Shown: positions 6,951 through 38,825, counted from the stretch's first letter. The stretch: 38,825 nt of DNA from Candidatus Portnoybacteria bacterium CG08_land_8_20_14_0_20_40_83 (GCA_002774415.1 PEYL01000079.1:1-38825); one strand, 5' to 3'. Program-made: numbers and translations. Notes: generated by a model from the letters alone, not told the origin.

Positions 6951-7104
6951 GCGAGGGTATTGCCTCAAAAAACATCGCGCAACCGCGCCATTAAATTTTT
7001 CAACGGAATAGCTAATGCGCGGTGAGCGGCTCGGCAGCGGCTGGATTAAAACTTGTTTTTACATTTGACAGCCGACTGCGGTTTTTTGAGGCAATGCCCG
7101 AGCG
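6951..7104 (-). repeat. Structured intercistronic element, family A, copy 1 (rpsD stop to rpoA start)
   Basis: Outer stem 6955-6973 GGGTATTGCCTCAAAAAAC pairs with 7080-7099 GGTTTTTTGAGGCAATGCCC. Inner helix is 6982-6988 ACCGCGC / 7017-7023 GCGCGGT. The conserved blocks AACATCGCGCA and GCCGACTGCG are shared with the copies at 8531 and 13156. Confidence 0.85.
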
Positions 7105-8530: not shown

Positions 8531-8681
8531 CGAGGCTTGTTGCGAGCAAAACATCGCGCAGCCACGCCCGCTATTTTTTTATTACTTTCTAAGGCGTGGC
8601 GAGCGTGAGCAGCAGCTGAATGATAACCTTATATTCTGAATCAACGGGCTGACTGCGTTTTTGCGAGCCAACAAACCGAGG
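8531..8681 (-). repeat. Structured intercistronic element, family A, copy 2 (rpsM stop to rpsK start)
   Basis: It shares AAAACATCGCGCAGC, GAGCGTGAGCAGCAGC and GCTGACTGCGTTTTTG with the other copies. The inner helix is GCCACGCC (8561-8568) / GGCGTGGC (8593-8600). It ends at the base next to the rpsM stop codon (8682-8684). Confidence 0.85.
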
Positions 8682-11845: not shown

Positions 11846-11883
11846 GCGGGACGACTACGGTTTTGCAAGTCAATAAACCGAGA
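11846..11883 (-). repeat. Family A half-copy (stop-proximal arm only)
   Basis: GCGGGACGACTACGGTTTTGCAAGTCAATAAACCGAGA aligns with 8645-8681 (CGGGCTGACTGCGTTTTTGCGAGCCAACAAACCGAGG). It abuts the ftsA-like stop codon at 11884-11886. Confidence 0.6.
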
Positions 11884-13155: not shown

Positions 13156-13321
13156 GGCGAGGGCACCTGCCGAGAAAAACATCGCGCAGCTGCGCTCAAT
13201 AATAACTTGCTTTTTCCAAGTCAATACTTAGCGCAGCGAGCGCTGAGCAGCGGCCAGCTGATAACTGCCTTTTACTTTTTTCGGGCCGACTGCGTTTTTT
13301 GGAGGCAGATGACCGAGCTCC
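13156..13321 (-). repeat. Structured intercistronic element, family A, copy 3 (alaS stop to ftsA-like start)
   Basis: It carries AAAAACATCGCGCAGC, GAGCGCTGAGCAGCGGC and GCCGACTGCGTTTTTTGGAGGCA. The inner helix is GCTGCGCT (13189-13196) / AGCGCAGC (13230-13237). It ends 1 nt from the alaS stop (13323-13325). Confidence 0.85.
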
Positions 13322-16621: not shown

Positions 16622-17194
16622 ATGCTCAGCTATAGCGATTTAAGACCCGGCGTCTTTTTTATTTTAGACGGACAGCCTTATGAGGTGCTGGAATTTTCGT
16701 TTTTGCGCATGCAGCAAAGAAAGCCGGTTGCCCAGACAAAAATAAAAAATCTTATATCGGGAAAAATCATTAGCCGTAATTTTCAGCCCAATGAAACTTT
16801 CCAAGACGCCAATATTAATTATAAAGACGTAAAATTTCTTTATAACCATCGCGAAAAATTTGTTTTCTGCGAAATTAACGACCCTTCAAAAAGATTTGAA
16901 TTGGAAGAAAGTCAGATCGGCGAATTAAACAAATTTATGAAACCCAATAGCGAACTGGAAGTAATTGAATTTAATAATAAAATTATAAATATTGCCCTGC
17001 CAATAAAAATGGATTTTAAAGTCATTGAGGCGCCGCCCGGCATCAAAGGCGATACGGCCCAAGGCGGCACCAAAGCGGTCAAAATAGAGACCGGAGCGAC
17101 GATAAATGTGCCTCTCTTCATAGAAGAAGACGACATCATCAGAGTAAACACCCAAACTAGCTTGTATACGGAACGAATAGAAAAATCAAAGTAA
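16622..17194 (+). CDS. efp: Elongation factor P
   Basis: 190 aa: LRPGVFFILDGQPYEVLEFSF...KFLYNHREKFVFCEINDPS...APPGIKGDTAQGGTKAVKIETGATINVPLFIEEDDIIRVNTQTSLYTER. The modification loop is atypical (see findings). Confidence 0.9.
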   Translation: MLSYSDLRPGVFFILDGQPYEVLEFSFLRMQQRKPVAQTKIKNLISGKIISRNFQPNETFQDANINYKDVKFLYNHREKFVFCEINDPSKRFELEESQIGELNKFMKPNSELEVIEFNNKIINIALPIKMDFKVIEAPPGIKGDTAQGGTKAVKIETGATINVPLFIEEDDIIRVNTQTSLYTERIEKSK

Positions 17195-17279: not shown

Positions 17280-19100
17280 TTATAATTCTATCTTCTCTCC
17301 CTCATTTAAAACTTCCCTATTTGAATTGTCAGATTTGTTTTCGCTACGCTTACTATTCTGGCCTGGGACCGAATTGCTTTTTTTCTCTTCCGCATCGTTT
17401 TCTTCCTCGTTTTTTAAAACTTCATGCAGGGTCTCGCGCAGCTCCGACAAATTAACTTCTTTTTTCTTTCTTCGCGAATCTGAAAATTTGGCCGGCTCTT
17501 TCCCAGCGGCTTGGGCCAAAGAAATAGGTTCGCCAGTATCTTTAATTAAAATCTCGCTTGAAGGTTTTGAGTTTTCCGGTCTGAAGTTTGGCGTAAAGGT
17601 TCGTGAAGTGGACGCAGAAAAAGTTCTTCCTTGCTCCCGCATTTTTGGCAAACAATCTTTGCAATAGACGGGCCTGACCCCATCGGGCTTAAATTTTACC
17701 TGAATTTTTTTGCCGCAATTGGCGCAAATTGCATCAAACATTGGCTGCTGCTGTTCATGAAATTCTGTTTCATGCGCTCTTGAAAATTCTTTCCCCAAAG
17801 TTTTTCTTTCCTCTTCTTCGTTTTTAATTACTCCGCTCCATTTGGCAATTTTTTCCTCAACTTCGCTGCGGCTCGTGCTGTAGCGCTCTCGGGAAACCTT
17901 AATGATTGTTTCTTTATACGAAACTTCGGGTTTGGGAAACGGAGCGAGAGTTGTGGCGGAAAAAGGCCGCGAAGCCATGCCATCAATCATCAGTTTCAAA
18001 TAAATCTGCGCAAAGCCAAGCCCCACCAGGTCGTTGACCGTAAACTCCGGCTCAAATTCTTTTTCAATAAATTCAGCGTCATACCCGCCGACTCTGAAAA
18101 TAATCATCGTGCCCACGTTCCCAAAAACCGCGTCTCGCACCGGTTCAACCATCTGGGTGATATACTGATGCGCCAAAATTAAATCCAGGTGGTATTTTCT
18201 GGCTTCAGACAAAATTGCAGCAAACGATTCGGTAGCAAAATTTTGAAACTCGTCAACATATAAATAAAAATCTTTGCGTTCTTCTTCTGGCACATCAATC
18301 CGCGACATGGCGGCCAGCTGAAGCCGCGTGATAAGCATGGCGCCCAGTAAAGCGGAATTGTCCTCGCCAATCCTGCCTTTGGATAAATTCATGACAAATA
18401 TCTTCTCCTCGTCCATAATCTCACGGATATCAATGGCTGATTTTGTCTGACCGACAATATTGCGAATCAAAGGACTTGTCAAAAACTGCCCGACTTTGTT
18501 TTGAATCGGTGCCACTGCCTCGGCCATAAATCTGTCGGGATATTTGGTGAATTCATCAACCCAAAAACTTTTAACAACCGGGTCGGTAATTTTTTCCACC
18601 ACTTTTTTACGGTATTCCTTATCAATCAAAATGCGCATAATGCCAAGAAGGGTTGAGCCGGGATATTCCAAAAGAGCCAAGATTGCATTTCGTAAAAGAT
18701 ATTCAAGCCTCGGACCCCATGACTCTGCCCATAGTTTTTTAAAAACACCTACGAGCCCCGAAGCAATAAGATGCCTATGTTCAGGATCAACTTTTTCAAT
18801 GGCATTGAAAGCAATCGGAAAATCCAAATCGGCCGGATTGAAATAAATCACATCATTGATCCGGTTCGAAGGCACATAATCAAGAATTTTTTCGGAAAAT
18901 TCGCCGTGCGGATCAACGATACCAACGCCCCTGCCTGCCTGAATATCTTGAATCGCCATATTTTCTTCAAGGGTTGTTTTCCCGGTGCCGGTTTTCCCGA
19001 TAATATAAAAATGTCTCCGGCGGTCGTCGGCTTTTATCCCAAATTTAACTCTCTGATTACGAAAGTTAGTCTCGGCAAATAATGTTAGTTCTTCATTCAT
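17280..19100 (-). CDS. VirD4/TraD/TrwB-like (type IV coupling-protein-like) P-loop ATPase with a C-terminal zinc ribbon and a charged tail
   Basis: 606 aa. Walker A is YIIGKTGTGKTT and Walker B is FYLYVDEFQNF, followed by ARKYHLDLILAHQY. This is the pattern of TraD/VirD4/HerA-like hexameric translocases. The soluble N-terminus has no TM segment. The C-terminal ribbon is CANCGKKIQVKFKPDGVRPVYCKDC, followed by a ~130-aa low-complexity tail. Confidence 0.7.
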   Translation of the reverse strand: MNEELTLFAETNFRNQRVKFGIKADDRRRHFYIIGKTGTGKTTLEENMAIQDIQAGRGVGIVDPHGEFSEKILDYVPSNRINDVIYFNPADLDFPIAFNAIEKVDPEHRHLIASGLVGVFKKLWAESWGPRLEYLLRNAILALLEYPGSTLLGIMRILIDKEYRKKVVEKITDPVVKSFWVDEFTKYPDRFMAEAVAPIQNKVGQFLTSPLIRNIVGQTKSAIDIREIMDEEKIFVMNLSKGRIGEDNSALLGAMLITRLQLAAMSRIDVPEEERKDFYLYVDEFQNFATESFAAILSEARKYHLDLILAHQYITQMVEPVRDAVFGNVGTMIIFRVGGYDAEFIEKEFEPEFTVNDLVGLGFAQIYLKLMIDGMASRPFSATTLAPFPKPEVSYKETIIKVSRERYSTSRSEVEEKIAKWSGVIKNEEEERKTLGKEFSRAHETEFHEQQQPMFDAICANCGKKIQVKFKPDGVRPVYCKDCLPKMREQGRTFSASTSRTFTPNFRPENSKPSSEILIKDTGEPISLAQAAGKEPAKFSDSRRKKKEVNLSELRETLHEVLKNEEENDAEEKKSNSVPGQNSKRSENKSDNSNREVLNEGEKIEL

Positions 19101-20478: not shown

Positions 20479-21540
20479 TTAGGCGATATTAAAACGCCCG
20501 TCCTCCAGCCTTTTGAAATATTTTTTGTTTTGAAGATTGATTAAGATGGTATTTTCCTTAATCAGCCTCTTGGCTAAAACTTTTTTAACTATATTTTCTT
20601 TAGACAAAGACCCTTCTTTTTTTAAAATGTCATAGATAACATCCAAAACAGTGCCGGGCTCGTAACCCCATTCGGCTAACGCATAAATCCCGCGGCCGAT
20701 TAAAACAAAACGCGGATCTTTTATCAGCTCGTTATGAACCGTCTGAATATAAGCCGGTCGCAGATTAGGAAGCTGGGAATTGATAAGCTCCGTGATTTCA
20801 GAAAAATGAAACGGTCGGCTTTCTTTTTTCAAAATCAAATAAGCCTTATCCCGCACGCCTCTGGGAGAAATTTCCGGCCAGCCGACCGGCCCAAATTCGC
20901 CAAAATTATTTTGCTCAATTAATTTAGAAGCGTCAATATAAGAAAGCACGGCTTTATCAGAGACACCGGACAAGCCTTTTTTAATAATCTCTGAAAGTTC
21001 TTTATCGCCTAAGGGCCGGCGATTTTTATCAAAGTATTTTATTGCCGAGTCAACTGTTTTTTTTGCAATTTTTATGGAATTTTTATTGATAGTCCAGGAT
21101 GGATAAAATTGGTCGGTCTCCGCCAGCCTTTCAAATGGTTGACTCAAAGTCAAAATTAAACTAATAGCGGCGCGGCAAAGCGTAAGTTCTTCTCCTTCTT
21201 TTTCCATCTGGGCCAGTTTTTGGGCAGGCAAGCAAAAACAGACTAAATCATTAAAAGTTTTTTCTTCCCGGCGCATATCGCCGTAGTCTTTAAAATAAGT
21301 ATGGATCTCGTCTTGAAGAGGTTTCAGCCTCAATTGAACTTCGGGCTGCGCTAAATGATCGAGGCCGTTCTTTTCAATCTGGCGGACCCGCTCTCTTGTA
21401 ATATTGTATTGATCACCAATTTCCTGAAGAGTTTGCGGAATCCCGCCGGCTAAGCCAAAACGTCGGCGAATCACATCCTGAGTTCTCCGATTATTTACCT
21501 CCTCCAAAATTTCTGAAACTAAATTATATGGATTTTCCAT
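20479..21540 (-). CDS. Sigma-70 region-4-like HTH protein with a C-terminal HARE-HTH-like winged helix
   Basis: The N-terminus VIRRRFGLAGGIPQTLQEIGDQYNITRERVRQIEKNGLDHL is a region 4.2 signature. The C-terminal part RPFHFSEITELINSQ...TVHNELIKDPRFVLIGRGIYALAEWGY resembles the HARE-HTH of RpoE/delta-type proteins. Confidence 0.6.
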   Translation of the reverse strand: MENPYNLVSEILEEVNNRRTQDVIRRRFGLAGGIPQTLQEIGDQYNITRERVRQIEKNGLDHLAQPEVQLRLKPLQDEIHTYFKDYGDMRREEKTFNDLVCFCLPAQKLAQMEKEGEELTLCRAAISLILTLSQPFERLAETDQFYPSWTINKNSIKIAKKTVDSAIKYFDKNRRPLGDKELSEIIKKGLSGVSDKAVLSYIDASKLIEQNNFGEFGPVGWPEISPRGVRDKAYLILKKESRPFHFSEITELINSQLPNLRPAYIQTVHNELIKDPRFVLIGRGIYALAEWGYEPGTVLDVIYDILKKEGSLSKENIVKKVLAKRLIKENTILINLQNKKYFKRLEDGRFNIA

Positions 21541-21580: not shown

Positions 21581-21650
21581 ACACGGAAACGCCCACACGG
21601 ATATTATTATATCGGGGTCATCCGTGTGTAATCCGGGTATCAGTGTCGCT
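21581..21650 (-). promoter_or_regulatory. Conserved ~70-nt leader motif, copy 1 (upstream of the HTH/membrane/ATPase operon)
   Basis: By hand alignment, 56 of 70 positions are identical to 35602-35670. The hairpin is CACACGGAT (21594-21602) / ATCCGTGTG (21620-21628). It lies downstream of the promoter-like site at 21668-21696. Confidence 0.5.
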
Positions 21651-21667
21651 TTTTTTTAATTACCTAA

Positions 21668-25353: not shown

Positions 25354-25569
25354 TTAAGGAATGGGATAATAGCCGTCCTGACCAAACTCAAGCGTCACGC
25401 CGTCAGCCACGGAAAATATGGGATATTTCTCGGATTAGGCTAGGCAGTCTTCCTGCAAATGGACGAGGTCTATGAATTTTTCCCAATCCAAATTTTTATC
25501 CTTCAGCACTATTTCCAAAAATTCTCTCCCCGCCGGCTCCAAAATTTTAAAGATTTTAAGATTTTGCAT
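25354..25569 (-). pseudogene. Small reading frame (71 sense codons) interrupted by one in-frame TAA; possible decayed gene
   Basis: Starting from ATG 25569, the frame reads MQNLKIFKILEPAGREFLEIVLKDKNLDWEKFIDLVHLQEDCLA, then TAA (25437-25435), then in the same frame SEKYPIFSVADGVTLEFGQDGYYPIP and TAA (25356-25354). I recognise no family. Confidence 0.25.
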
Positions 25570-25575
25570 ATTCTA

Positions 25576-25596
25576 GAAATTTCGATATATCGATAT
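25576..25596. repeat. Left 21-bp inverted repeat bracketing the four-helix-bundle gene
   Basis: GAAATTTCGATATATCGATAT is the exact reverse complement of 26085-26105. Confidence 0.85.
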
Positions 25597-25610
25597 TCCG
25601 AAATATTATG

Positions 25611-26078
25611 TTATTCCTCTTTATAGAACTTCTCATAAATCTCCGGCGCGGTTGTTTTTAAAATTTCTTTCATCGGATCCTCTCTTTCAACGCGCTTAAA
25701 TTGTATTCCCTGGCGCGAGCCGCCTTTAACTTTATACGCGAAACTTTGGATTAATCGCGAACATTCATCGCATAATTTCAGACCGCGCTCCATATCTTTG
25801 TCTAAAACATAATGCCTGTCGTACGCCAAATACAACTGACTCCTTGCTTCTCCGACCTCACCCTTGGCAATGAATAAGGCATCAATTAATTCCGACCGCG
25901 TCCCTCTGTCAAATCCTTCCGCAATATTGGACATTGGCGATATGATAGTTTTGCGGATGTGCCATTTCAATTTTGGGTCTTTAAATATCGGCTTATCGGT
26001 AATGTCAAAAATAAAATTGGCCAATTCTCTTGTTTTCTGCCAGCAAATTAAGTCTTCAAATTTTTGTATTGTCGCCAT
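25611..26078 (-). CDS. Four-helix-bundle protein (23S rRNA intervening-sequence protein family)
   Basis: 155 aa: FEDLICWQKTRELANFIFDIT...IRKTIISPMSNIAEGFDRGTRSELIDALFIAKGEVGEARSQLYLAYDRHYV...LIQSF. This is the characteristic pattern of the family. Confidence 0.8.
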   Translation of the reverse strand: MATIQKFEDLICWQKTRELANFIFDITDKPIFKDPKLKWHIRKTIISPMSNIAEGFDRGTRSELIDALFIAKGEVGEARSQLYLAYDRHYVLDKDMERGLKLCDECSRLIQSFAYKVKGGSRQGIQFKRVEREDPMKEILKTTAPEIYEKFYKEE

Positions 26079-26084
26079 TTTTAC

Positions 26085-26158
26085 ATATCGATATATCGAA
26101 ATTTCGACATATTGAAATAATATTCCCGCGACATATCGAAATCTTGAAATATCGAAAC
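26085..26158. repeat. Right 21-bp inverted repeat plus an array of ATATCGAAA(T) units upstream of the four-helix-bundle gene
   Basis: ATATCGATATATCGAAATTTC spans 26085-26105. Further units follow: CATATTGAAAT (26108), ACATATCGAAAT (26131) and AATATCGAAAC (26147). The array occupies the entire ASCH-stop to 4HB-start spacer. Confidence 0.8.
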
Positions 26159-26159
26159 G

Positions 26160-26504
26160 TTATTTTAGTTCAAACGCAATTATTCCGTATTTTTTGATTT
26201 TTTCTTTATAATTAGGGAAGTTCCAATAAACTTGGCGCAGCTCTTGCTCAGTTGAAACCCACGGATTAACTTGCCTGATTTTATATTTTTTCAGCATTGC
26301 TTTTATTGTTTTAAAATGCCGTACGGCTTTAACTACGTTTTCAAATCTTTGTTTTCCGCAGACTAAAACAATCCTGTCCCCGGCACGGATATTCTTAAAT
26401 TTTTTCGTCGCCGCGCGCGTTTCAATCTTTTTGCTGCCGTTTTTAATCGCTTCAAAAATATCTCTATTCACTGCGCGGAATTTTAATGTTGTATTTTTCC
26501 CCAT
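26160..26504 (-). CDS. ASCH (PUA-like) domain protein
   Basis: 114 aa. LKFRAVNRDIFEAIKNGSKKIETRAATKKFKNIRAGDRIVLVCG and the overall size fit ASCH-domain proteins. Confidence 0.6.
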   Translation of the reverse strand: MGKNTTLKFRAVNRDIFEAIKNGSKKIETRAATKKFKNIRAGDRIVLVCGKQRFENVVKAVRHFKTIKAMLKKYKIRQVNPWVSTEQELRQVYWNFPNYKEKIKKYGIIAFELK

Positions 26505-29770: not shown

Positions 29771-29810
29771 TGTAGGCGCCGCCCCGACGAACGTCGGGGC
29801 GGCGCCTACA
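29771..29810 (-). promoter_or_regulatory. Perfect 19-bp GC-rich hairpin in the secA leader, ending 7 nt before the AUG
   Basis: TGTAGGCGCCGCCCCGACG-aa-CGTCGGGGCGGCGCCTACA. The core CCCGACGAA(G)CGTCGGG also occurs at 19168-19184. The two overlapping track ORFs here are palindrome artefacts. Confidence 0.6.
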
Positions 29811-29857: not shown

Positions 29858-29881
29858 AAAAAAAACGGGTCAAAACCCGTT
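29858..29881 (-). terminator. Intrinsic terminator ending the polyamine operon
   Basis: The minus strand reads AACGGGT-tttg-ACCCGTT followed by TTTTTTTT. It lies 29 nt after the speB stop. Confidence 0.7.
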
Positions 29882-29909: not shown

Positions 29910-30848
29910 TCAAGCAAAAATATAGCCAATAATCTTGTAAACTAATTTGGCGGCCAAAAAATCCGGCGCATTTAGGCCCTGAATTGGCGCAAGCTCCACG
30001 ACATCGGCTCCGATGATATTTTTCTTGGAAGCAATTGCTTTTAAAATCTCCATCGCCTGATACCATTGCAAACCGCCCGGTTCCGGCGTGCTGCAGGATG
30101 GCATAATCCCGGAATCAAACGCATCAACATCAAAAGTTAAATAAACATTTTTATCTAAAGAATTAACAATATCACTAATTTTCCATCTCGCCATATCTTT
30201 TGCCCAAAATGTTTTTATTCTTTTTTGATTTTCTTTCCAAAAACCGAACTCATCGGTATCGGTGCTGATATTCCTGATGCCGACTTGCGTTAGCGTGACA
30301 TCCCCCTCCCTCTCCTTCTCCCTTTGCAAGGGGGAGGGAGAGGTGAGGGATGAATTTAATTTTAGGCATTGACGCATAACACAGGCATGATTATAAATCG
30401 TGCCTTCGTATTCTTCGCGCAAATCCGCATGGGCGTCAAATTGCAAAATTGAAATTTCGCCATATTTTTTTTGAGCCGCGCGAACGGCTCCCAAAGTCAA
30501 AGAATGTTCGCCGCCCAAAATCAGCGGAAACTTATTTAATTTATAAATTTCATTAACAATCTCTTCGAGCTGCCCAATCGCTGCTTCGTGACTTTTTTTT
30601 ATTTTTGGCTCGGCCAAAGTCGTAATCGCCACCTCTTTATAAACGTCTTTTTTCAATTCTTCGTCAAAGGTTTCCAATTGCGGGCTGACTTCAATAATGC
30701 GCTCGGGACCTTTATGCGTTCCTTTGCCAAAACAGACCGTTTTTTCCAACCCAAAAGGCACGATAACAACATCGGCCAAATCAGGCGAATTTTTTTCGTC
30801 TAAAAAATTTTTTTTCGCTAATTTTAATTTCATCTTGTCTTTCTGCAA
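29910..30848 (-). CDS. speB: Agmatinase (arginase/ureohydrolase family) carrying a repeat-like in-frame insert
   Basis: Mn-site motifs GGEHSLTLG, QFDAHADLRE and TFDVDAFDSG, plus STPEPGGL. There is an extra segment SSLTSPSPLQREKEREGD (see findings). Confidence 0.85.
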   Translation of the reverse strand: MQKDKMKLKLAKKNFLDEKNSPDLADVVIVPFGLEKTVCFGKGTHKGPERIIEVSPQLETFDEELKKDVYKEVAITTLAEPKIKKSHEAAIGQLEEIVNEIYKLNKFPLILGGEHSLTLGAVRAAQKKYGEISILQFDAHADLREEYEGTIYNHACVMRQCLKLNSSLTSPSPLQREKEREGDVTLTQVGIRNISTDTDEFGFWKENQKRIKTFWAKDMARWKISDIVNSLDKNVYLTFDVDAFDSGIMPSCSTPEPGGLQWYQAMEILKAIASKKNIIGADVVELAPIQGLNAPDFLAAKLVYKIIGYIFA

Positions 30849-30855
30849 AAATTAA

Positions 30856-32154
30856 TCAAACATAGCCCCAGGATTGTAATTTATCACTATCATGATACCA
30901 ACGAGTGCCAATATCAACGCGATAAAACATATCCTGGAGACGAATATTTTTAATTCTATTATAAGCTATTCTCCTTGCCTCTTCTACGGTAATGCTGGAT
31001 CCTGTTACTACTAAAGCATATCCAGATTCTCCGGCTAATTTGAAATCACCATCCACCATTTTTACATCTCCCAAGTGAATTCCTTCCATTGTGTTAGAGT
31101 TTTTAAACAAAATTGAAGAATCTTTATAGATAGAAAAAATCTCTTGGTTAATAAAAGGGAATGGGGGGACTGCCAGCACAACACCAATTTGGAATCCCTT
31201 CTTTGTCTTGATTTCTAAATCTTTACCATGGGCAAGATTCAACAAAAATTCACCTATTGATTCAGTAATGCCTTCCAACTGAACACTAATTGTGGGGTAA
31301 CCAAAGCGGGCGGTAATTTCCAAAGGATAAATCCCACGACCATTAACAATGCAATTAATATCAAAATAGCCGATATAATTATTTTTGGATATAACTTTTT
31401 CCATTTTTGCTAAAGTGTTGTCAAAAATAATGCTGGCATAATTCCAATACATCAGTGTCCCCATTTCTCCAGTAAAAGGACCTTGATCGCCAGGAAATAA
31501 TTTTTTATGCTCAAAATTTATATTCAAAGGACGAATAAAATTTTTACCATTAAAAAAACCGCCGATTGCCACCTCTACTCCTGCTACAAATTTTTGCAGC
31601 TGAAAACCATCCATTTTTTTTAGCCACAATTTTTTGTTGTGTTCCATTATTTCTATAATGTCTTTTCCGTCCTCTTCTTCACCTATAAATAAAATGTTTT
31701 TTTCGTCTCCGGTTACCTTATTGGGTTTGAAAACATATCGGCCGGGATTATTCTTTAAAAAATCTATCGCTGAATCAAAATTATTAAAATTATGATAGGG
31801 TAAAATGTTCATTCCAGCTTTTTTCATTTCCTCTTGACCAAACTCGCGATCTTCTTCAGTTTTATCAGTATAAACTGAACCGCCAACAACTAATTTACCG
31901 GCTTTTCTTAATTTCTCGGCAATCTGCCCAAACCCTGTATCATCAAAGACAACGATGTCCGCCCAATCAATAAAATTTTCCCATTTGTCAACTTTATCAA
32001 GCAAACCATCATAAACATCGGCATCAAACTTATCTTCTACATGTATCTTCACATCATGTCCTTCTTTTCTTATTTTCCAAGCCAAATCACCGCTTAGGCT
32101 CATCCAAGAAACAAATAAAAATTTTTTTTGATGAAACTCTGTGTTGTTGTTCAT
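30856..32154 (-). CDS. PurD-like ATP-grasp ligase (phosphoribosylamine--glycine ligase family)
   Basis: 432 aa and collinear with PurD. EHKKLFPGDQGPFTGEMG matches PurD EHKR..DGD.GPNTGGMG, LEITARFGYPT matches EFN.RFGDPE, and the C-terminal YRVDIGTRW matches R.DIG.R. The N-terminal third is divergent. The substrate is not assignable from sequence. Confidence 0.6.
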   Translation of the reverse strand: MNNNTEFHQKKFLFVSWMSLSGDLAWKIRKEGHDVKIHVEDKFDADVYDGLLDKVDKWENFIDWADIVVFDDTGFGQIAEKLRKAGKLVVGGSVYTDKTEEDREFGQEEMKKAGMNILPYHNFNNFDSAIDFLKNNPGRYVFKPNKVTGDEKNILFIGEEEDGKDIIEIMEHNKKLWLKKMDGFQLQKFVAGVEVAIGGFFNGKNFIRPLNINFEHKKLFPGDQGPFTGEMGTLMYWNYASIIFDNTLAKMEKVISKNNYIGYFDINCIVNGRGIYPLEITARFGYPTISVQLEGITESIGEFLLNLAHGKDLEIKTKKGFQIGVVLAVPPFPFINQEIFSIYKDSSILFKNSNTMEGIHLGDVKMVDGDFKLAGESGYALVVTGSSITVEEARRIAYNRIKNIRLQDMFYRVDIGTRWYHDSDKLQSWGYV

Positions 32155-32202
32155 CTGAACTATTTTGGGCTTTGATTTTATTTTTTTTGGGAAACCTCGG
32201 AT

Positions 32203-32631
32203 TTACTGAAAACCGTTGGAATAATTACCATAATCTACTGTTAATTCTTCTCCTTTTTTGATATCTCTTAAAGCAAAAAATTCTTCCCCGTCTTTATCTA
32301 TTACATTTGGATTATCGGAACGGTTCAGAAAAAAACTAATATCAATTTCATTCAAGCTAAAATTTGGCAAATAAAGCTTCCTCTTCGTGATAACATAAAA
32401 ATCCTTCACCATTTTTTTAATTTCTTTATTAATTTTTTGATTTTCAAAAACTAATTTTGGATTAACGGCAATAAACTTTGTTTTTCTTGTAAGCTTGAAG
32501 ATATTAGTGCCCTCTGGAATATCCCTGACAGCAAATACGCCCACACCTTCTATTTTTGATGGTCTCAATCTACAATAAATGTTCTCTTCTAAATCTTTAA
32601 TAATTTTTCTGATAATCTTTTTATCGGTCAT
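32203..32631 (-). CDS. SET-domain methyltransferase
   Basis: 142 aa: GVGVFAVRDIPEGTNIF, FLNRSDNPNV (in place of NHSCxPN), and FALRDIKKGEELTVDYG, the canonical SET C-terminal motif. Confidence 0.7.
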   Translation of the reverse strand: MTDKKIIRKIIKDLEENIYCRLRPSKIEGVGVFAVRDIPEGTNIFKLTRKTKFIAVNPKLVFENQKINKEIKKMVKDFYVITKRKLYLPNFSLNEIDISFFLNRSDNPNVIDKDGEEFFALRDIKKGEELTVDYGNYSNGFQ

Positions 32632-32668
32632 ATCTTTTAATAATACAAAAATTATATGTCCAATAATT

Positions 32669-33589
32669 TCACTTTCTGAATACAGAAAAAGTGTAGGTTT
32701 TATAAATCGCTGCTGGATGGAATTTCATTTTAAAAGCCAATAATTTTTCTTCGCTCCCGCCAAAATCAACCAGCTGATAATTCCTTCTCTTTAATTCTGT
32801 TAACTCATCTAAATAAGAAACTTCACCGATATTTCGATAACTATAATCATATAAACCAATGCAAGAATAATAATCTCGACTGTTGGGGATATTCCAGCCG
32901 GCATTAATCGAAACCGGTCGATTATTTACCAACATAATTCTAACCAAGTCACAACCTTGAAAATCGTTATTGATAAATCTTAGATATTGCAACGAATGAA
33001 CCTTATCAGTGCTTCCGCGCTGCTTCTCCCATTTAAAAACTAATTGTGTCAAATCCTCTTTTTTTATCTGATAAGATTCTTTAATCTGTACCTGATTCTC
33101 TTTAAAGAATTTATTTCTCATATTACGCAGTCTTTTCCATTTTTTCCCCTCTAATTTTTCGCTCCAATCTTCCAAATCAATCAATGGCCAAAGAAGGACA
33201 TAACTGGGTTTAGCCGCTCTGAATTTAGAAGACTTAACTGCTTCAACAATTTCTTTCCAGAAATCCTCCGTCATATCTTCCAAGATTATTTTTTTAATGT
33301 TTCTATGTGTAAAAGTCCAGTCGAAAAACTCAAAAATTATTTTTTTCTTTGAACGCTGAAGAGCAATCGGATCGGTAAGCACTCGCCAAATATTATCTCG
33401 CTGATAAGCAAAGAGTCCCTGATTTCCATCCCATTCAAAAAAGACATTCTTTTCATTTTTGCGGCTATAATTCAGGTAGAAATGAAAATGATGCTGAGCT
33501 AAATGACCGTATTTAGAAATTGTCTTCTGAATTTGTTGTGCATTGCTTTGAATATCTTTAATAATCTTCATTGATTTATACGCGTACAA
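32669..33589 (-). CDS. DUF2156 / MprF C-terminal-like (aminoacyl-tRNA-dependent transferase fold) protein
   Basis: 306 aa. The size, the central GKKWKRLRNMRNKF segment, and the C-terminal LLAFKMKFHPAAIYKTYTF all resemble the lysyl-phosphatidylglycerol synthase C-terminal domain family (..FK.KF.P......Y). This assignment is from memory and needs an HMM check. Confidence 0.45.
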   Translation of the reverse strand: MYAYKSMKIIKDIQSNAQQIQKTISKYGHLAQHHFHFYLNYSRKNEKNVFFEWDGNQGLFAYQRDNIWRVLTDPIALQRSKKKIIFEFFDWTFTHRNIKKIILEDMTEDFWKEIVEAVKSSKFRAAKPSYVLLWPLIDLEDWSEKLEGKKWKRLRNMRNKFFKENQVQIKESYQIKKEDLTQLVFKWEKQRGSTDKVHSLQYLRFINNDFQGCDLVRIMLVNNRPVSINAGWNIPNSRDYYSCIGLYDYSYRNIGEVSYLDELTELKRRNYQLVDFGGSEEKLLAFKMKFHPAAIYKTYTFSVFRK

Positions 33590-33635
33590 AGAATTATTTC
33601 GACGATTAGGAAGTTTTTTATTAACAAGTTTTTAT

Positions 33636-34721
33636 TTAGTAGCTAACCCTAACTGGTGTCTCGCTCCAGTCAAACACCGGTTTTTTGCGCTTTTTGGCGT
33701 CGGATAAAGATTTCTCAAAAAGAGTCTGCGCGACAAATGGCAAAGCGATAGTGATATCGGCAAAACACTGCACTTTTTTGGCGCCGCGCGAAACTTTTCC
33801 CCACGACTGCGCTTCTTCAAATGTGCAGCCTGACAATCCTCCCCAGTGCGGCGCATCGGTAGTTATCTGAATAGCATAGGAATGCGGCTTGCGATAACCT
33901 TCTTTTTCGTGAATCGGCACATCGCTTTTAACATAATCTGGGTCTGCCAGATTCGGTGTGATTTCCGCTGTCTGCTGAATATAATTTTTTGGCACACCGC
34001 CGCCAAGATAAATAACACCCGTCTTTTTTGAATTCAAAGTCAAATATGCTGATTCTGACAAATCTTTTATCGTATCAACAATAAAAGTTTTATTATTTTT
34101 CATCGCGCTGTACCAGATGGCAATACCGATGTAGCTGTCGCCAAATGAAGGAATAAAAACCGGCACTCCCTGCTTATAAGCGTTAATCAAAATCGAATCT
34201 TGGTTTTTTGAAATTTTTGACAATTCCCTGCCCATTAATGCTGTAATTTCCCTTGAAGAGTAAACCTGCCCGCTTTTTAGATACTGTGCCGCCATTCTTT
34301 TTATAAAAAATTCTCCTGTCAGCAAATCCATTTCTTCTGCCAGGACATCATAGATGCGTACTACTCCCTCTTGAAAAAGCTCGTAATCATTCATTACTGC
34401 CTCGCCAATAAAATGCTCGCGGCCTAATGTTTCAAACGTTTCGTGGAACATTTGGGCGCCGGTTGAAACGATCGCATCAACAAATCTGTTTTTAACCAAA
34501 AATGAGATTACTTTCCTCATTCCTGCAGGGATAATCGCGCCCGAAATTCCAAGCCAAATCGTGATTTCTTTTTCTTTAATCATTTCGCGCCAGATTTTTG
34601 TAATTTCGCCAAGCTTCTTTCCTTGAAATCCCGTCAGCGCCAAATTCTCAACTAAATCGGAAACTAGCTGCTTTTTTATTTCAATTGGTTTTGTTTTTTG
34701 TTTCAGAAAATCTTTCTTCAT
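33636..34721 (-). CDS. Deoxyhypusine synthase-like protein (DHS / DHS-type homospermidine synthase family)
   Basis: 361 aa: LGISGAIIPAGMRKVISFLVKNRFVDAIVSTGAQMFHE, the NAD-site motif YLGGGVPKNYIQQ, and EEAQSWGKV retaining the catalytic-lysine motif (E.VSWGK in eukaryotic DHS). Confidence 0.85.
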   Translation of the reverse strand: MKKDFLKQKTKPIEIKKQLVSDLVENLALTGFQGKKLGEITKIWREMIKEKEITIWLGISGAIIPAGMRKVISFLVKNRFVDAIVSTGAQMFHETFETLGREHFIGEAVMNDYELFQEGVVRIYDVLAEEMDLLTGEFFIKRMAAQYLKSGQVYSSREITALMGRELSKISKNQDSILINAYKQGVPVFIPSFGDSYIGIAIWYSAMKNNKTFIVDTIKDLSESAYLTLNSKKTGVIYLGGGVPKNYIQQTAEITPNLADPDYVKSDVPIHEKEGYRKPHSYAIQITTDAPHWGGLSGCTFEEAQSWGKVSRGAKKVQCFADITIALPFVAQTLFEKSLSDAKKRKKPVFDWSETPVRVSY

Positions 34722-34744
34722 GCCAATGTAATTAAAATTTATTC

Positions 34745-34783
34745 ACCCTGTTAGATGCGGCTACGCCGTCTATCTAACGGGGT
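34745..34783. repeat. Family B mini-hairpin in the pdaD-DHS spacer
   Basis: ACCCTGTTAGAT (34745-34756) pairs with ATCTAACGGGGT (34772-34783), with one G-U pair. It is followed by a CGAAATTTCC/GGAAATTTCG hairpin (34796-34830) and a GAGGCGGG/CCCGCCCC hairpin (34851-34870). Confidence 0.65.
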
Positions 34784-34902
34784 AAAGGTTTTGTAACGAA
34801 ATTTCCATAGCCTCATGGCTCGGAAATTTCGACAAAGCCTTTTATATAAGAGGCGGGTCTCCCCGCCCCTTAAAAATTTTTATCTGATAATTTTTTCTTA
34901 AA

Positions 34903-35562
34903 TTATTTTGATTGCTTATCACCGTTACTCGACACGCCATTGGTCGGTTGGGAATTATCAGCCGAGGAAACCGGCGCTTGATAAACTTGTCCATTAATCA
35001 GCGCTTCGGTAGCGAACCTCATGTCGCAAAAAACTGCGGCCGTAACCACTGTCGTCCACAAACCGTCTTTATTGCCAATGGCCGACTGGGTAATATTTGT
35101 TGTCCGGACAATTTTACCGCTCATTTTATAAATCTGTTCTCGTTCATCCCAGGCAATATCAGAGTCAAACTCAATACCAAGAGTAGTGGCTAGCATCGAA
35201 GCGGCCAAATCTTCGGCATATTCGCCCGCCTTTGAATCGGTCTCTCCAAAAGAATGATGTTCAGAAAGATAGCCATATTGAGCAGAGTCAGCCGGCATCG
35301 CACATCCAACAGAAGACGCGATTAGCCTATTTGGTTCATTCGTTGAATTACGACTTACAACCCAATAGACGATTTGGCCAGGTGTTAAAATTTTTAAACC
35401 TTCTTCTTTTGAAATTCGTTTGCAACCCGGTGGAAAAATGCTTGAAACGTTAACTAAATTAAAAGGCGCCACTCCTGCATCACGCAAAGCCATCTCAAAA
35501 GACGTCAAATGTTCTTTATGAACGCCGACTCCTTTGGTAAAAAATAATTTTTGAGCAATCAT
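34903..35562 (-). CDS. pdaD: Pyruvoyl-dependent arginine decarboxylase
   Basis: I prefer the ATG at 35562 ([47 protein letters not shown]). The track start at 35580 is a TTG. The VSS(I/L)PP self-processing serine site is present. The C-terminus has a ~30-aa low-complexity tail. Confidence 0.88.
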
Positions 35563-35601
35563 TGTATCCGGAAAGCGCAAAGTTTGCCTATGGCAAACAT
35601 T

Positions 35602-35670
35602 ACCCGGACGCGCTCACACGGATAATTTTTTTCCGGGTCATCCGTGTAAAATCTGCGTATCGGTGTCGCT
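35602..35670 (-). promoter_or_regulatory. Conserved ~70-nt leader motif, copy 2 (between the hpf stop and pdaD)
   Basis: It aligns with 21581-21650. The hairpin is ACACGGAT (35616-35623) / ATCCGTGT (35640-35647), and CCCGGA (35603-35608) / TCCGGG (35632-35637) could form an interleaved pairing. Its last bases overlap the hpf stop codon. It is followed toward pdaD by GTTTGCC-ata-GGCAAAC (35583-35599) plus TTT. Confidence 0.5.
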
Positions 35671-36058
35671 ATTTGTTTTTTCTAAATCTCGCCAGCGGCG
35701 ATATACCGTAAAGCTTTTTTATACTTCTGGCTCCCCTCCTGAATAATGTTTCCTTTTTTGTCTTAAATTTTCTTATTTCTTCCTCCAATTCTTCTTTTGC
35801 GTCATCAATTAAAGAAAAAAGGTTCTCGTTTTTAACCTCGCTACGGAAAAATTTTCCCGGAATTTTTAAATTTATATGCGCTTCAAAAATTTCTCCCTGC
35901 TTTTGCCCGCCAACTACTCTTGCAAATTCTACCAAAACTTCAATCAGATCAGGATCAACGTTTTCTAAGAATTTCTCTAATTTTGCAATTCTTTTTTCTG
36001 TATAATCTTTCAGGTCTTCTGAAATTTTCACATCACTACTTCTTATAATAAACTTCAT
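35669..36058 (-). CDS. hpf: Ribosome hibernation promoting factor (RaiA/HPF, S30AE family)
   Basis: 129 aa: MKFIIRSSDVKISEDLKDYTEKRIAKLEKFL...FEAHINLKIPGKFFRSEVKNENLFSLIDDAKEELEEEIRKFK. Confidence 0.85.
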   Translation of the reverse strand: MKFIIRSSDVKISEDLKDYTEKRIAKLEKFLENVDPDLIEVLVEFARVVGGQKQGEIFEAHINLKIPGKFFRSEVKNENLFSLIDDAKEELEEEIRKFKTKKETLFRRGARSIKKLYGISPLARFRKNK

Positions 36059-37380: not shown

Positions 37381-38562
37381 TCAAGAAAGCCTGTTTTTAA
37401 AATCTTTGTATCCAAATTTTTTAATAACCTTGATTTTCCCCATTTTATCTCTTAAAGCGATAGACGGCAATTGCATACCGTTAAAAGTGGTATTTTTGAC
37501 CATCGTATAGATTACCATGTTAAAAAAAATCAATTTTGATCCAATTGTTAAAGGTTTTGGGGAAGAATAATCGCCTATTATATCGCCTGCCAGACAGCTT
37601 GGGCCGCCAAGGCGGTAGACATACGGATATTGATTGCGCTTTCCCGCTCCCAGTATTTGAGGCCAATAAGGCATCTCGAGCACATCGGGCATATGGCAGG
37701 CAGCCGAAACATCAAGAATCGCAATATTCATCTTATTTTTAAAAATATCTATGACTCGCGCCACAAGCACGCCTGCGTTTAATGCTATTGCCTCGCCGGG
37801 TTCCAAATAAATTTGCAAATGGGGATATCTCTTTTTAAAATCTTTAATAATTTGGCAAAGTAGCTTGATGTCATAATTTTTACGAGTTATATGATGGCCT
37901 CCGCCAAAGTTTACCCATTTCATTTGAGGAAGAAATTCTCCGAACTTTTTTTCAAAGACCTTAAGCGTTCGGCCCAAGGCATCTGCGTTATTTTCGCAGA
38001 GACAATGAAAATGTAAACCTTCAATACCTTTTAAATTTTTGGGTTCAAAATTTTCCATTGTTACTCCGAGGCGAGAAAGAGAGCCGCAGGGGTCATAAAA
38101 CGAAATTTTTACTTCGCTGTGTTCCGGATTGACTCTGATGCCACATGAAATTTTTTTGTGAAGCACCCGCCTGCGATATTTTTTCCACTGCGAAAAAGAA
38201 TTAAACACAATATGGTCTGCGTATCGCATTATGCCGGCAAAATCTTTCTCTGTGTAGGCCGGCGAAAAAACATGGACTTCTTTTTTGAATTCTTCAAAAC
38301 CAAGCCTCGTTTCATTGAGCGAACTGGCCGCCACGCCGCACAAATATTTTCTGATTATCCCAAATACCGAAAACATGGCAAAGCCTTTCAGTGCTATCAA
38401 AATCTTGCAGCCGGTATCCTTTTGAACTTTTGCCAGAATCTTTAAATTTTTTTCCAAACGGTTTTTGTCAACCACATAACAGGGCGTTTGAATATCGCCA
38501 AAATCTCCGGCCTTCCAGCCTGTTTTATCAATCCAAGGTTCTATAAAAACTTTTTTTGCCAT
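37381..38562 (-). CDS. nspC: Carboxynorspermidine/carboxyspermidine decarboxylase
   Basis: 393 aa: IQTPCYVVDKNRLEKNLKIL...ILIALKGFAMF, HFHCLCENN, NFGGGHHITRKNYD, YLEPGEAIALNAGVLVARVIDI. This is the NspC-type PLP decarboxylase pattern. Confidence 0.85.
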   Translation of the reverse strand: MAKKVFIEPWIDKTGWKAGDFGDIQTPCYVVDKNRLEKNLKILAKVQKDTGCKILIALKGFAMFSVFGIIRKYLCGVAASSLNETRLGFEEFKKEVHVFSPAYTEKDFAGIMRYADHIVFNSFSQWKKYRRRVLHKKISCGIRVNPEHSEVKISFYDPCGSLSRLGVTMENFEPKNLKGIEGLHFHCLCENNADALGRTLKVFEKKFGEFLPQMKWVNFGGGHHITRKNYDIKLLCQIIKDFKKRYPHLQIYLEPGEAIALNAGVLVARVIDIFKNKMNIAILDVSAACHMPDVLEMPYWPQILGAGKRNQYPYVYRLGGPSCLAGDIIGDYSSPKPLTIGSKLIFFNMVIYTMVKNTTFNGMQLPSIALRDKMGKIKVIKKFGYKDFKNRLS

Positions 38563-38627: not shown

Positions 38628-38825
38628 TTAAAAATCTTTTTGAAGAAATTCCGGAACTTCCTTCAGTTTTTTAACTTTCCAGGAAAGCCCTAATCTCGCC
38701 AACTCCTCCAGGAAAACCTTGGAATCAAACGCTGGATCTTCGGTGTTTTTAACTCCGAACACGCCTTTCCCCCATTTGCCTTCTATGATTAATTTCGCGG
38801 CGACGACTGTCGGAACTGCTGTTGT
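38628..38825 (-). CDS. C-terminal 65 codons of a saccharopine-dehydrogenase-family carboxy(nor)spermidine synthase (5-prime end outside the window)
   Basis: Not in the ORF track. My reverse translation is TTAVPTVVAAKLIIEGKWGKGVFGVKNTEDPAFDSKVFLEELARLGLSWKVKKLKEVPEFLQKDF, with stop TAA at 38630-38628. The G.W...GV....D...F...L...G pattern and its position just upstream of nspC fit CANSDH/CASDH. Confidence 0.6.
   Translation of the reverse strand, partial: TTAVPTVVAAKLIIEGKWGKGVFGVKNTEDPAFDSKVFLEELARLGLSWKVKKLKEVPEFLQKDF

Follow-up and report, generated by a model that had tools for sequence, protein, structure and literature searches.

Deoxyhypusine synthase (DHS) homologs from bacteria of diverse phyla, designated SpeY, condense two agmatine molecules into N1,N9-bis(guanidino)homospermidine (Li et al., JBC 2026, PMC13625781), and the SpeB homologs associated with SpeY then release homospermidine from this product by hydrolysis (PMC13625781). 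Caldilinea aerophila harbours a cluster in which an archaeal-type pyruvoyl arginine decarboxylase (ADC) accompanies SpeY and SpeB (PMC13625781); the same paper cites Burnat et al. 2018 for the agmatine/SpeY homospermidine pathway. SpeY clusters have also been recorded in the Candidate Phyla Radiation (CPR) and in DPANN archaea (PMC10407285). The present analysis concerns a six-gene locus of Candidatus Portnoybacteria bacterium CG08_land_8_20_14_0_20_40_83 (GCA_002774415.1, PEYL01000079.1:1-38825), carried on a stretch of 38,825 nucleotides that was analysed as a whole and is termed the window. At this locus a Parcubacteria bacterium has merged the known three-gene homospermidine pathway with a three-gene cassette centred on an uncharacterised ATP-dependent ligase. 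The outer genes match a published pathway; the inner cassette is undescribed in the literature searched. The reading favoured here, with a probability of about 0.45, is that the cassette is an amide-forming, N-methylating module that acts on agmatine or a polyamine.

Chemistry of this kind has precedents. ATP-grasp ligases join amino acids to a modified spermidine in phevamine A (PMC6187163), and the phevamine ligases HsvB and HsvC adjoin a polyamine-modifying gene (PMC6187163, PMC2427367). Together with the glutathionylspermidine and trypanothione synthetases, they catalyse the reaction proposed below, the ATP-dependent formation of an amide on a primary amine of a polyamine. The ligase of the window differs from all of these enzymes in having no detectable homology to them beyond the ATP-grasp superfamily, and the comparison is one of analogy only.

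The six genes are, in order of transcription:

34903-35580, minus strand: pdaD, an agmatine-forming pyruvoyl-dependent arginine decarboxylase (PF01862, 2e-60; NF009064, 211.5 bits against a cutoff of 207; TIGR00286, 115 against 107; self-cleavage site VSS at residue 45)
33636-34721, minus strand: a SpeY-like deoxyhypusine-synthase homolog (DHS fold by PF01916, 2e-91; NAD site GGGVPKN and catalytic lysine of SWGK kept)
32669-33589, minus strand: a stand-alone soluble DUF2156 protein of the MprF C-terminal type, with a tandem GNAT fold (PF09924, 7e-12)
32203-32631, minus strand: a minimal SET-domain methyltransferase of 142 amino acids (aa) (PF00856, 3e-14; signatures NRSDNPN and ELTVDY)
30856-32154, minus strand: a PurD-like ATP-grasp amidoligase (GARS_A and GARS_C; PurD fold)
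29910-30848, minus strand: speB, an arginase-fold ureohydrolase (PF00491, 2e-61; TIGR01230 agmatinase, 217 bits against a cutoff of 174; all Mn-site motifs present)

From pdaD to speB the intergenic gaps measure 181, 46, 37, 48 and 7 nt, and the whole run is inferred to be a single transcription unit in which a GC-rich hairpin at the start of the 181-nt spacer may attenuate transcription. Upstream of pdaD lie the genes for the ribosome hibernation factor HPF and for MurB, then nspC and the 3' end of a carboxynorspermidine-synthase-like gene. An earlier account of the locus, made without database searches (here the sequence-only reading), had described six co-directional genes separated by 7-181 nt, and the coordinates of the open reading frames (ORFs) bear this out. 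Its fold assignments for all six genes are upheld by profile searches against Pfam and NCBIfam, and every motif that it quoted (VSS, GGGVPKN, SWGK, DAHAD, DVDAFD, GGEHS) is found in the translations.

The outer genes and a probable agmatine route to homospermidine

The three outer genes represent the same enzyme families as the published pathway (PMC13625781). In the genome closest to the window as judged by flanking genes (locus L172; identities: nspC 92%, DHS 86%, speB 81%, SecA 79%, MurB 75%) the three are contiguous, the ortholog of speB being the arginase gene next to the DHS-family gene (DS). The window departs from the published arrangement in placing three extra genes between the DHS homolog and speB. 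By analogy with homologs for which the pathway has been shown experimentally, the outer genes would encode an agmatine-dependent homospermidine pathway: PdaD would supply agmatine from arginine, the SpeY-type homolog would join two agmatines into N1,N9-bis(guanidino)homospermidine, and the ureohydrolase would then free homospermidine. The sequence-only reading had likewise begun with arginine, agmatine and a polyamine, and this part stands; its continuation through putrescine to homospermidine or hypusine gives way to the published homocoupling of agmatine by ADC, SpeY and SpeB (PMC13625781). The outer genes would thereby carry the agmatine/SpeY route into a Parcubacteria clade.

The DHS homolog scores below cutoff on all four DHS models of NCBIfam. 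Its best model is PRK00805 (403 against 434), and the SpeY-type models NF002699 and NF001980 give 245 against 500 and 238 against 450. A CPR clade of close relatives shows 74-87% identity; beyond it identity drops to 51% or less, the next relatives being proteins of Methanosarcinales and Methanocella that carry the source name 'deoxyhypusine synthase 2' ('DHS 2'). In its NF002699 score and in these methanogen relatives the window protein is unlike the SpeY of the published pathway. It is probably an agmatine-coupling enzyme on the way to homospermidine, a product suggested by gene context, and the substrate of the ureohydrolase SpeB could be either agmatine or bis(guanidino)homospermidine. Among 80 metagenomic loci collected with the DHS homolog as anchor, the DHS gene is adjoined by speB in 19, by pdaD in 13 and by a SpeD-like decarboxylase in 8, and 21 of the 80 have an ADC or SpeD-like gene upstream of it.

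The sequence-only reading had also named the translation factor EF-P as a candidate target of a hypusine-like modification, in which the DHS homolog would aminobutylate an EF-P lysine and the three inner genes would elaborate the adduct. The conserved SWGK lysine and NAD motif would suit such an activity, and the best NCBIfam model, scoring below cutoff, bears the name deoxyhypusine synthase. The unusual loop that had been noticed in EF-P (16622-17194) is also there: the beta3-beta4 loop is FLRMQQRKPVAQTK, compared with FVKPGKGQAFARVK in E. coli. Yet the position of E. coli K34 is occupied by Q, with R and K adjoining (RMQQRKP), and an eIF5A-like GKHG loop is absent. Moreover, the bacterial DHS homologs tested all form bis(guanidino)homospermidine, with agmatine as the substrate (PMC13625781). 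The inner genes mostly occur without DHS, and DHS occurs without them. EF-P or aIF5A as a neighbouring target was rejected, since neither is adjacent to the ATP-grasp gene in any locus; the nearest EF-P gene, seen in one locus, is eight genes distant, and no GKHG protein is encoded among the ATP-grasp-anchored loci L001-L084. The nearest DHS relatives outside CPR are the methanogen 'DHS 2' proteins. The EF-P proposal is unsupported and its probability is slight in the extreme.

A ligase family annotated as PurD

The central enzyme of the cassette resembles PurD, the phosphoribosylamine-glycine ligase (GAR synthetase), in fold and in part of its catalytic apparatus. GARS_A is matched at 2e-14 (54 bits, cutoff 27) and GARS_C at 34.5, borderline under its cutoff of 34.8, and the Pfam scan returned no match to GARS_N. 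The top 15 PDB fold matches of a structure model of moderate quality (pLDDT 65) are all PurD; the fold is common to both (PDB 2yw2, 1gso), and the alignment is full-length once E. coli PurD joins the family alignment. The ATP-binding lysine, the HK...GPxTGxMG loop and E..RFG of PurD are kept.

Sources accordingly label the homologs 'phosphoribosylamine--glycine ligase', and PurD is the best match in both sequence and fold. As a true PurD, however, the protein was rejected on equivalog score, motifs and gene context. It reaches 120 bits on the PurD equivalog TIGR00877, far under the cutoff of 288, and is about 24% identical to PurD. Against an E. coli PurD sequence, the hallmark motifs GGREHA, GPE(APL), GDPE and GGR are replaced by the family-invariant SLSGD(LA), DDxGFG (DDTGFG), GYPT and SGY, of which SLSGD and DDxGFG are more acidic than the motifs they replace. 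Within the top 150, the other full-length matches to the query reach 185-450 bits, against about 75 bits for the best solved PurD. Its partners (SET, DUF2156) and its spread (CPR, DPANN, phages) are other than those of PurD, and purine-biosynthesis families are absent from the 16 neighbourhoods annotated with Pfam and from the window ORFs scanned against Pfam. The annotated function is therefore given next to no credence. We conclude that the ligase represents a distinct, uncharacterised amidoligase family of Patescibacteria, DPANN archaea and phages, mislabelled as PurD.

The family is large and strikingly conserved. More than 5600 homologs were found, the 120th best of which is still 63% identical; at least 583 species genomes carry the gene in a scan of one genome per species, and the best 80 of these carriers, with identities of 56-73%, belong to the Patescibacteria and the DPANN archaea. 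Among 50%-identity representatives, searched exhaustively, 469 matched at E <= 1e-30. A gene annotated as PurD is present in hundreds to thousands of genomes of Patescibacteria and DPANN archaea, and if it encodes a different enzyme their metabolic reconstructions would have to be corrected. Such organisms are generally considered to lack purine synthesis.

Several homologs have acquired further domains. Ten of 740-1120 aa (P0265, P0266, P0267, P0270, P0287, P0299, P0319, P0330, P0337 and P0411) match the query in two or three stretches, with breaks at query residues ~230-238 or 270-282, beside GEMGT and EITARFG; the two that were scanned, P0265 and P0267, contain Hint, LAGLIDADG and intein-splicing domains. 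P0333 (578 aa) is a natural ATP-grasp-SET fusion with the SET domain at its C-terminus, where residues 447-569 are 33% identical to the window SET protein (E = 1e-15). The source organism of P0333 is Ala-rich and apparently non-CPR. P0315 (523 aa) bears a C-terminal HAD-like phosphatase extension with the motif GFDLDKTLA, and in P0314 (1236 aa) an ATP-grasp homolog of 38% identity is placed between phage portal and Mu-F-like (MuF) head-protein domains. On 22 IMG/VR contigs (L175-L196) the family occurs at 28-39% identity amid large genes of virion type, tail-fibre-like and internal-protein-like ones being among the neighbours; no SET, DUF2156 or polyamine genes lie nearby at these viral loci.

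The partner proteins

PF09924 matches the DUF2156 protein at 45.5 bits (cutoff 27.5) over profile positions 21-209 of 298 only. Since sequence searches of solved structures with the SET and DUF2156 proteins were marginal or empty, fold comparison was used for DUF2156. Its model (pLDDT 93.3) is closest to the MprF structures A-PGS/L-PGS 4v35, 4v36 and 5vrv, with TM scores of 0.62-0.66 and Foldseek E-values of about 2e-15 to 4v35 and 9goe, followed by 9wqx (Sbb17) and then FemX. The tandem-GNAT fold is common to the window protein, the C-terminal aminoacyl-phosphatidylglycerol synthase domain of MprF, Sbb17 and FemX. Unlike MprF, the window protein is soluble, about 300 aa long and without flippase or transmembrane domain: its 306 residues include no hydrophobic segment (maximum 19-residue hydropathy 0.63), and the bifunctional MprF model gives 16 bits against a cutoff of 600. 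An identical protein (100%) is encoded by Parcubacteria bacterium CG1_02_40_82, a genome with which the window is the same or nearly so. The fold family makes the DUF2156 protein a candidate aminoacyl-tRNA-dependent transferase, and Sbb17, which is Fem/DUF2156-like, offers a precedent for tRNA-dependent aminoacylation of a small amine.

The SET protein matches PF00856 over the full profile (positions 1-105 of 105; 53.9 bits, cutoff 22.4), and a sequence search against solved SET structures returned marginal matches only (E 0.015 or worse). Its signatures correspond to the NxSxxPN and ELxxDY of SET enzymes, including BurB, a bacterial SET enzyme that methylates free methionine (PMC12542666); at 142 aa the window protein is a minimal member.

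A cysteine-rich protein of 140-180 aa, matching PF03692 (CxxCxxCC) mostly weakly, recurs near the ATP-grasp gene at six loci within 5 kb:

L166 7991-8536, L167 7408-7920, L169 6469-6996 and L174 5785-6306: directly upstream of the ATP-grasp gene, in the position of the window's SET gene
L170 5262-5795: upstream, with an M29-like gene between
L007 6402-6824: upstream of the DHS gene

The Cys motif of FliB, a [4Fe-4S] lysine methylase, has been described as 'similar' to PF03692 (PMC8598068). An identity as a FliB-like lysine methylase was considered for this partner and set aside as a weak lead only, NCBIfam giving no match. Separately, a saccharopine-dehydrogenase-fold protein of 383-393 aa is encoded directly downstream (+1) of the ATP-grasp gene in five species (L029, L031, L036, L041, L053). 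It is weakly similar to carboxynorspermidine synthase and could be a secondary-amine-forming partner.

Gene neighbourhoods of the ligase

Neighbours within 5 kb were counted at 90 loci anchored on the ATP-grasp gene, 81 of them species-representative. SET genes were the most frequent (17), followed by DUF2156 (13), DHS (9), speB (8) and SpeD-like genes (7); class-I methyltransferase, CxxCxxCC, saccharopine-dehydrogenase-like and pdaD genes occurred 6 times each, other GNAT and SpdSyn genes 4 times each, and Acetyltransf_6 and M29 aminopeptidase-like genes 3 times each. All genes of the counted families lie within five genes of the ligase, with none in the 378 gene slots at ranks 6-12, and methyltransferase and GNAT-fold neighbours lie almost wholly within four. 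SET and DUF2156 genes stand beside the ligase in archaea as well as in bacteria (for instance L061, L074 and L044). The triad of DUF2156, SET and ATP-grasp genes is thus a real cassette, recurrent and separable.

In close relatives the cassette keeps company with amine metabolism. All nine sampled relatives whose ligase is at least 73% identical have polyamine-pathway genes in the same co-directional cluster, and these genes are of non-orthologous kinds. The arrangements observed, with AG for the ATP-grasp gene, are:

L165: pdaD-DUF2156-AG
L166 and L167: pdaD-DUF2156-CxxCxxCC-AG
L169: pdaD-M29-CxxCxxCC-AG
L168: SpeD-SpdSyn-SpeD-SET-AG
L006: SpdSyn-SpeD-DHS-speB-AG
L170: SpdSyn-SpeD-arginase-DS-CxxCxxCC-M29-AG
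L174: PLP decarboxylase-SpeD-SpdSyn-DS-(173 aa)-AG-arginase
L001: GNAT-speB-DS-methyltransferase-AG, with no decarboxylase in view
L007, more distant: DHS-AG-speB, the DHS being of another subtype that passes NF001980
L021, more distant: SET-AG-PLP decarboxylase-DHS-speB
L057, Aenigmatarchaeota: DHS and speB divergent from the ATP-grasp gene

The DS-family proteins of L001 (5780-7279) and L170 (3783-5252) are about 490-500 aa long, with an N-terminal extension of some 170-180 aa ahead of the DHS-profile region.

Among close relatives the ligase is more steadily partnered by a decarboxylase that yields an amine, PdaD for the most part, and agmatine is therefore indicated as much as homospermidine. 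The window PdaD itself is 80-84% identical to those of the DUF2156-AG operons, compared with 73% to that of L172. The simplest description of the locus is a mosaic, in which a single pdaD stands at the head of two branches, SpeY/SpeB and DUF2156-X-ATP-grasp, that are apart in relatives and joined here.

Several observations weigh against a functional bond between the cassette and polyamines. The order in L172 (SacchDH-nspC-MurB-HPF-pdaD-DS-arginase-SecA) is that of the window block minus the triad, and L171 likewise has polyamine genes at this site and lacks the triad. None of the counted partners lies within 5 kb at 47 of the 90 ligase loci; most ligase loci are without DHS and speB, and a polyamine gene is found within that distance in only 10 of the 81 species-representative loci. 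Polyamine-linked cases come mostly from one MurB-HPF...SecA block of related Paceibacteria, and shared ancestry could therefore inflate the association. The DHS homolog falls under both the SpeY and the DHS cutoffs of NCBIfam. Finally, the triad is present in 0 of the 80 DHS-anchored loci. The sequence-only reading had proposed co-occurrence of the triad with DHS as a check, and on this count the expectation failed; the triad as a regular component of SpeY clusters is ruled out.

Part of this evidence would suit a juxtaposition without shared function, in which the variable interval between HPF and SecA hosts a housekeeping ATP-grasp cassette beside interchangeable polyamine cassettes. Compact CPR genomes often carry unrelated genes packed co-directionally. 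The occupants of the interval do vary: L171 and L172 have the polyamine genes alone, L010, L052 and L071 have the ligase in the block without DHS or speB, and no DHS-anchored locus has the triad. Composition differs as well, GC content at third codon positions being 0.27-0.33 in the triad against 0.42-0.43 in the DHS homolog and speB. What speaks against chance is that non-orthologous polyamine genes hold the same tight co-directional spot beside the ligase, and that in three lineages (the window, L174 and L007) the ligase gene has DS on one side and arginase on the other; of these lineages, L007 lies outside the MurB/SecA block. Polyamine-gene neighbours number eleven at ranks 1-2 and none at ranks 6-12, and the archaeal locus L057 provides a further case. 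Mere juxtaposition is thus judged unlikely, and within the window's clade the evidence favours a tie between the triad and polyamine metabolism, which is not universal.

A proposed chemistry for the inner cassette

The reading of the cassette as an amide-forming, N-methylating module leads to the following scheme, which is entirely inferred. By analogy with PurD, the ATP-grasp enzyme would phosphorylate a small carboxylate, glycine or a similar amino acid, and couple it to a primary amine, either on agmatine or on a polyamine that the neighbouring enzymes produce; its substrate is probably such an amine. The DUF2156 protein would add a further aminoacyl group from aminoacyl-tRNA, or else supply the group to be joined. 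N-methylation of a terminal, lysine-like amine would fall to SET or, in other lineages, to the class-I methyltransferase found in its place. An aminoacylated, N-methylated conjugate of agmatine or a polyamine would result. The decorated amine put forward in the sequence-only reading is in this way retained as the most plausible product, with the change that agmatine is as likely a target as homospermidine. Its statement that no described pathway includes the three inner genes also agrees with the literature searched: the cassette is not described in publications on DHS and Patescibacteria, on ATP-grasp with SET or amidoligases, on DUF2156 with ATP-grasp or polyamines, on homospermidine with ATP-grasp, or on purD in CPR and DPANN.

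A different substrate would be a protein. The triad might act on a lysine or carboxylate of a conserved protein, such as a ribosomal protein or translation factor, with polyamine genes nearby through co-regulation of polyamines and translation and not as a source of substrate. SET domains usually methylate protein lysines, and the window SET match is full-length. The ligase is conserved like a ribosomal protein, at 56-73% between bacteria and archaea, and inteins break its catalytic motifs in several homologs. HPF is encoded within 5 kb at 14 of the 90 ligase loci, and the phage homologs in virion modules, one of them fused to portal and MuF domains, are typical of enzymes with protein or host targets. 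Conservation, inteins and phage contexts tell against a small-molecule amine, a macromolecular substrate fitting them also, and the HAD-like phosphatase tail of P0315 adds a hint of a phosphorylated substrate in some subfamilies. Nevertheless, all nearest structural relatives of the ligase (PurD, PurK, biotin carboxylase) are small-molecule enzymes. The adjacency of HPF is limited to the syntenic Paceibacteria block, and class-I methyltransferases and CxxCxxCC proteins take the SET position in other lineages. No target gene recurs by the module, the sole EF-P match being the distant one already mentioned, with no aIF5A-like GKHG. A protein target is on balance rather improbable, and the modification of agmatine or a polyamine remains the preferred reading.

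A broader and more tentative claim, towards which we lean less than towards the module itself, is that the mislabelled 'PurD', common to ultra-small bacteria and archaea and present in the virion modules of some phages, is the founder of a new amidoligase family, which either makes aminoacylated, N-methylated agmatine or polyamine conjugates together with SET and DUF2156 proteins or attaches amines to a macromolecule. If this were true, the chemistry would be important enough in such reduced cells to warrant conservation at the level of ribosomal proteins and invasion by inteins. Conservation, inteins, the SET fusion and the repeated placement in polyamine operons point to specific candidate substrates in little-known organisms. 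Should the product be a new agmatine or polyamine conjugate, it would constitute an extra branch of polyamine metabolism and may help to explain the use of polyamines by symbionts.

The second polyamine route and noncoding elements

Upstream of the six-gene run the window contains two further genes of polyamine metabolism:

37381-38562, minus strand: nspC, carboxy(nor)spermidine decarboxylase, part of the context and not an operon member (TIGR01047, 516 bits against a cutoff of 409)
38628-38825, minus strand: 3' end of a saccharopine-dehydrogenase-fold gene, carboxy(nor)spermidine-synthase-like by its translation, cut by the window edge

The intact syntenic gene of L172 matches NF043000 over positions 3-405 of 405, at 298 bits, under the cutoff of 800. 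The second polyamine route of the sequence-only reading is thereby confirmed, with nspC above its equivalog cutoff and the truncated gene corresponding to a full-length carboxynorspermidine-synthase-like protein in L172.

Three noncoding elements accompany the run:

35581-35677, minus strand: HPF-pdaD intergenic leader with a 51-nt repeat, a 13-bp hairpin and promoter-like hexamers
34722-34902, minus strand: 181-nt pdaD-DHS spacer with three long hairpins, the first GC-rich and terminator-like (minimum free energy -69.5 kcal/mol, z = -9.2)
29864-29881, minus strand: intrinsic-terminator-like hairpin and T-run downstream of speB, AACGGGTTTTGACCCGTT then TTTTTTTCAAG

The leader motif and the terminator had both been predicted. 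The former proves to be a genuine two-copy repeat, 80% identical over 51 nt between 35627-35677 and 21607-21657, and the latter is present on the minus strand at 29881-29864. The repeat includes the 13-bp hairpin ACACGGAU...AUCCGUGU, the fold of the leader has z = -4.1, and promoter-like sites lie at 35650-35622 and 35590-35561. Each copy is situated just past the stop of a gene (HPF in one case, SecF in the other) and ahead of the next minus-strand gene, namely pdaD and a gene for a Sigma70_r4 and HARE-HTH protein at 20479-21540. The repeat may serve as a terminator, as a processing site or as an operator.

The architecture of the 181-nt spacer recurs in the pdaD-DS spacer of L172 (L172 6742-7000), where hairpin 1 is identical, hairpin 2 differs in sequence yet pairs, and hairpin 3 (GTTAGAT...ATCTAAC) is duplicated; the hairpin-3 motif was found in these two spacers only. 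As a candidate regulator of the DHS homolog, the spacer could be an attenuator or a cis-regulatory RNA. No Rfam family matches the window at gathering thresholds, and the two structured intergenic regions give chance-level matches only.

Other elements lie outside the run. Downstream of the speB terminator, at 29771-29810 and 8 nt upstream of the SecA start, there is a perfect 18-bp GC-rich palindromic hairpin, TGTAGGCGCCGCCCCGAC-GAAC-GTCGGGGCGGCGCCTACA. Two short motif families, AAAACATCGCGCAnCnGCGC... at 6966-7000, 8545-8579 and 13173-13207 and CGGGCnGACTGCGTTTTTGCGAGCC...ACCGAG at 7071-7093, 8645-8680, 11847-11882 and 13282-13317, may be shared terminator or promoter elements of the genome. 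AT-rich repeats CGATATATCGAAATTTCGA are clustered at 25569-25618 and 26067-26164, about 500 bp apart on either side of a small gene region, and have the look of iteron-like or operator arrays. At 17280-19100 a 606-aa protein with TrwB/TraG-type coupling-protein domains and a treble-clef zinc finger suggests a component of conjugation or type IV secretion in this small genome.

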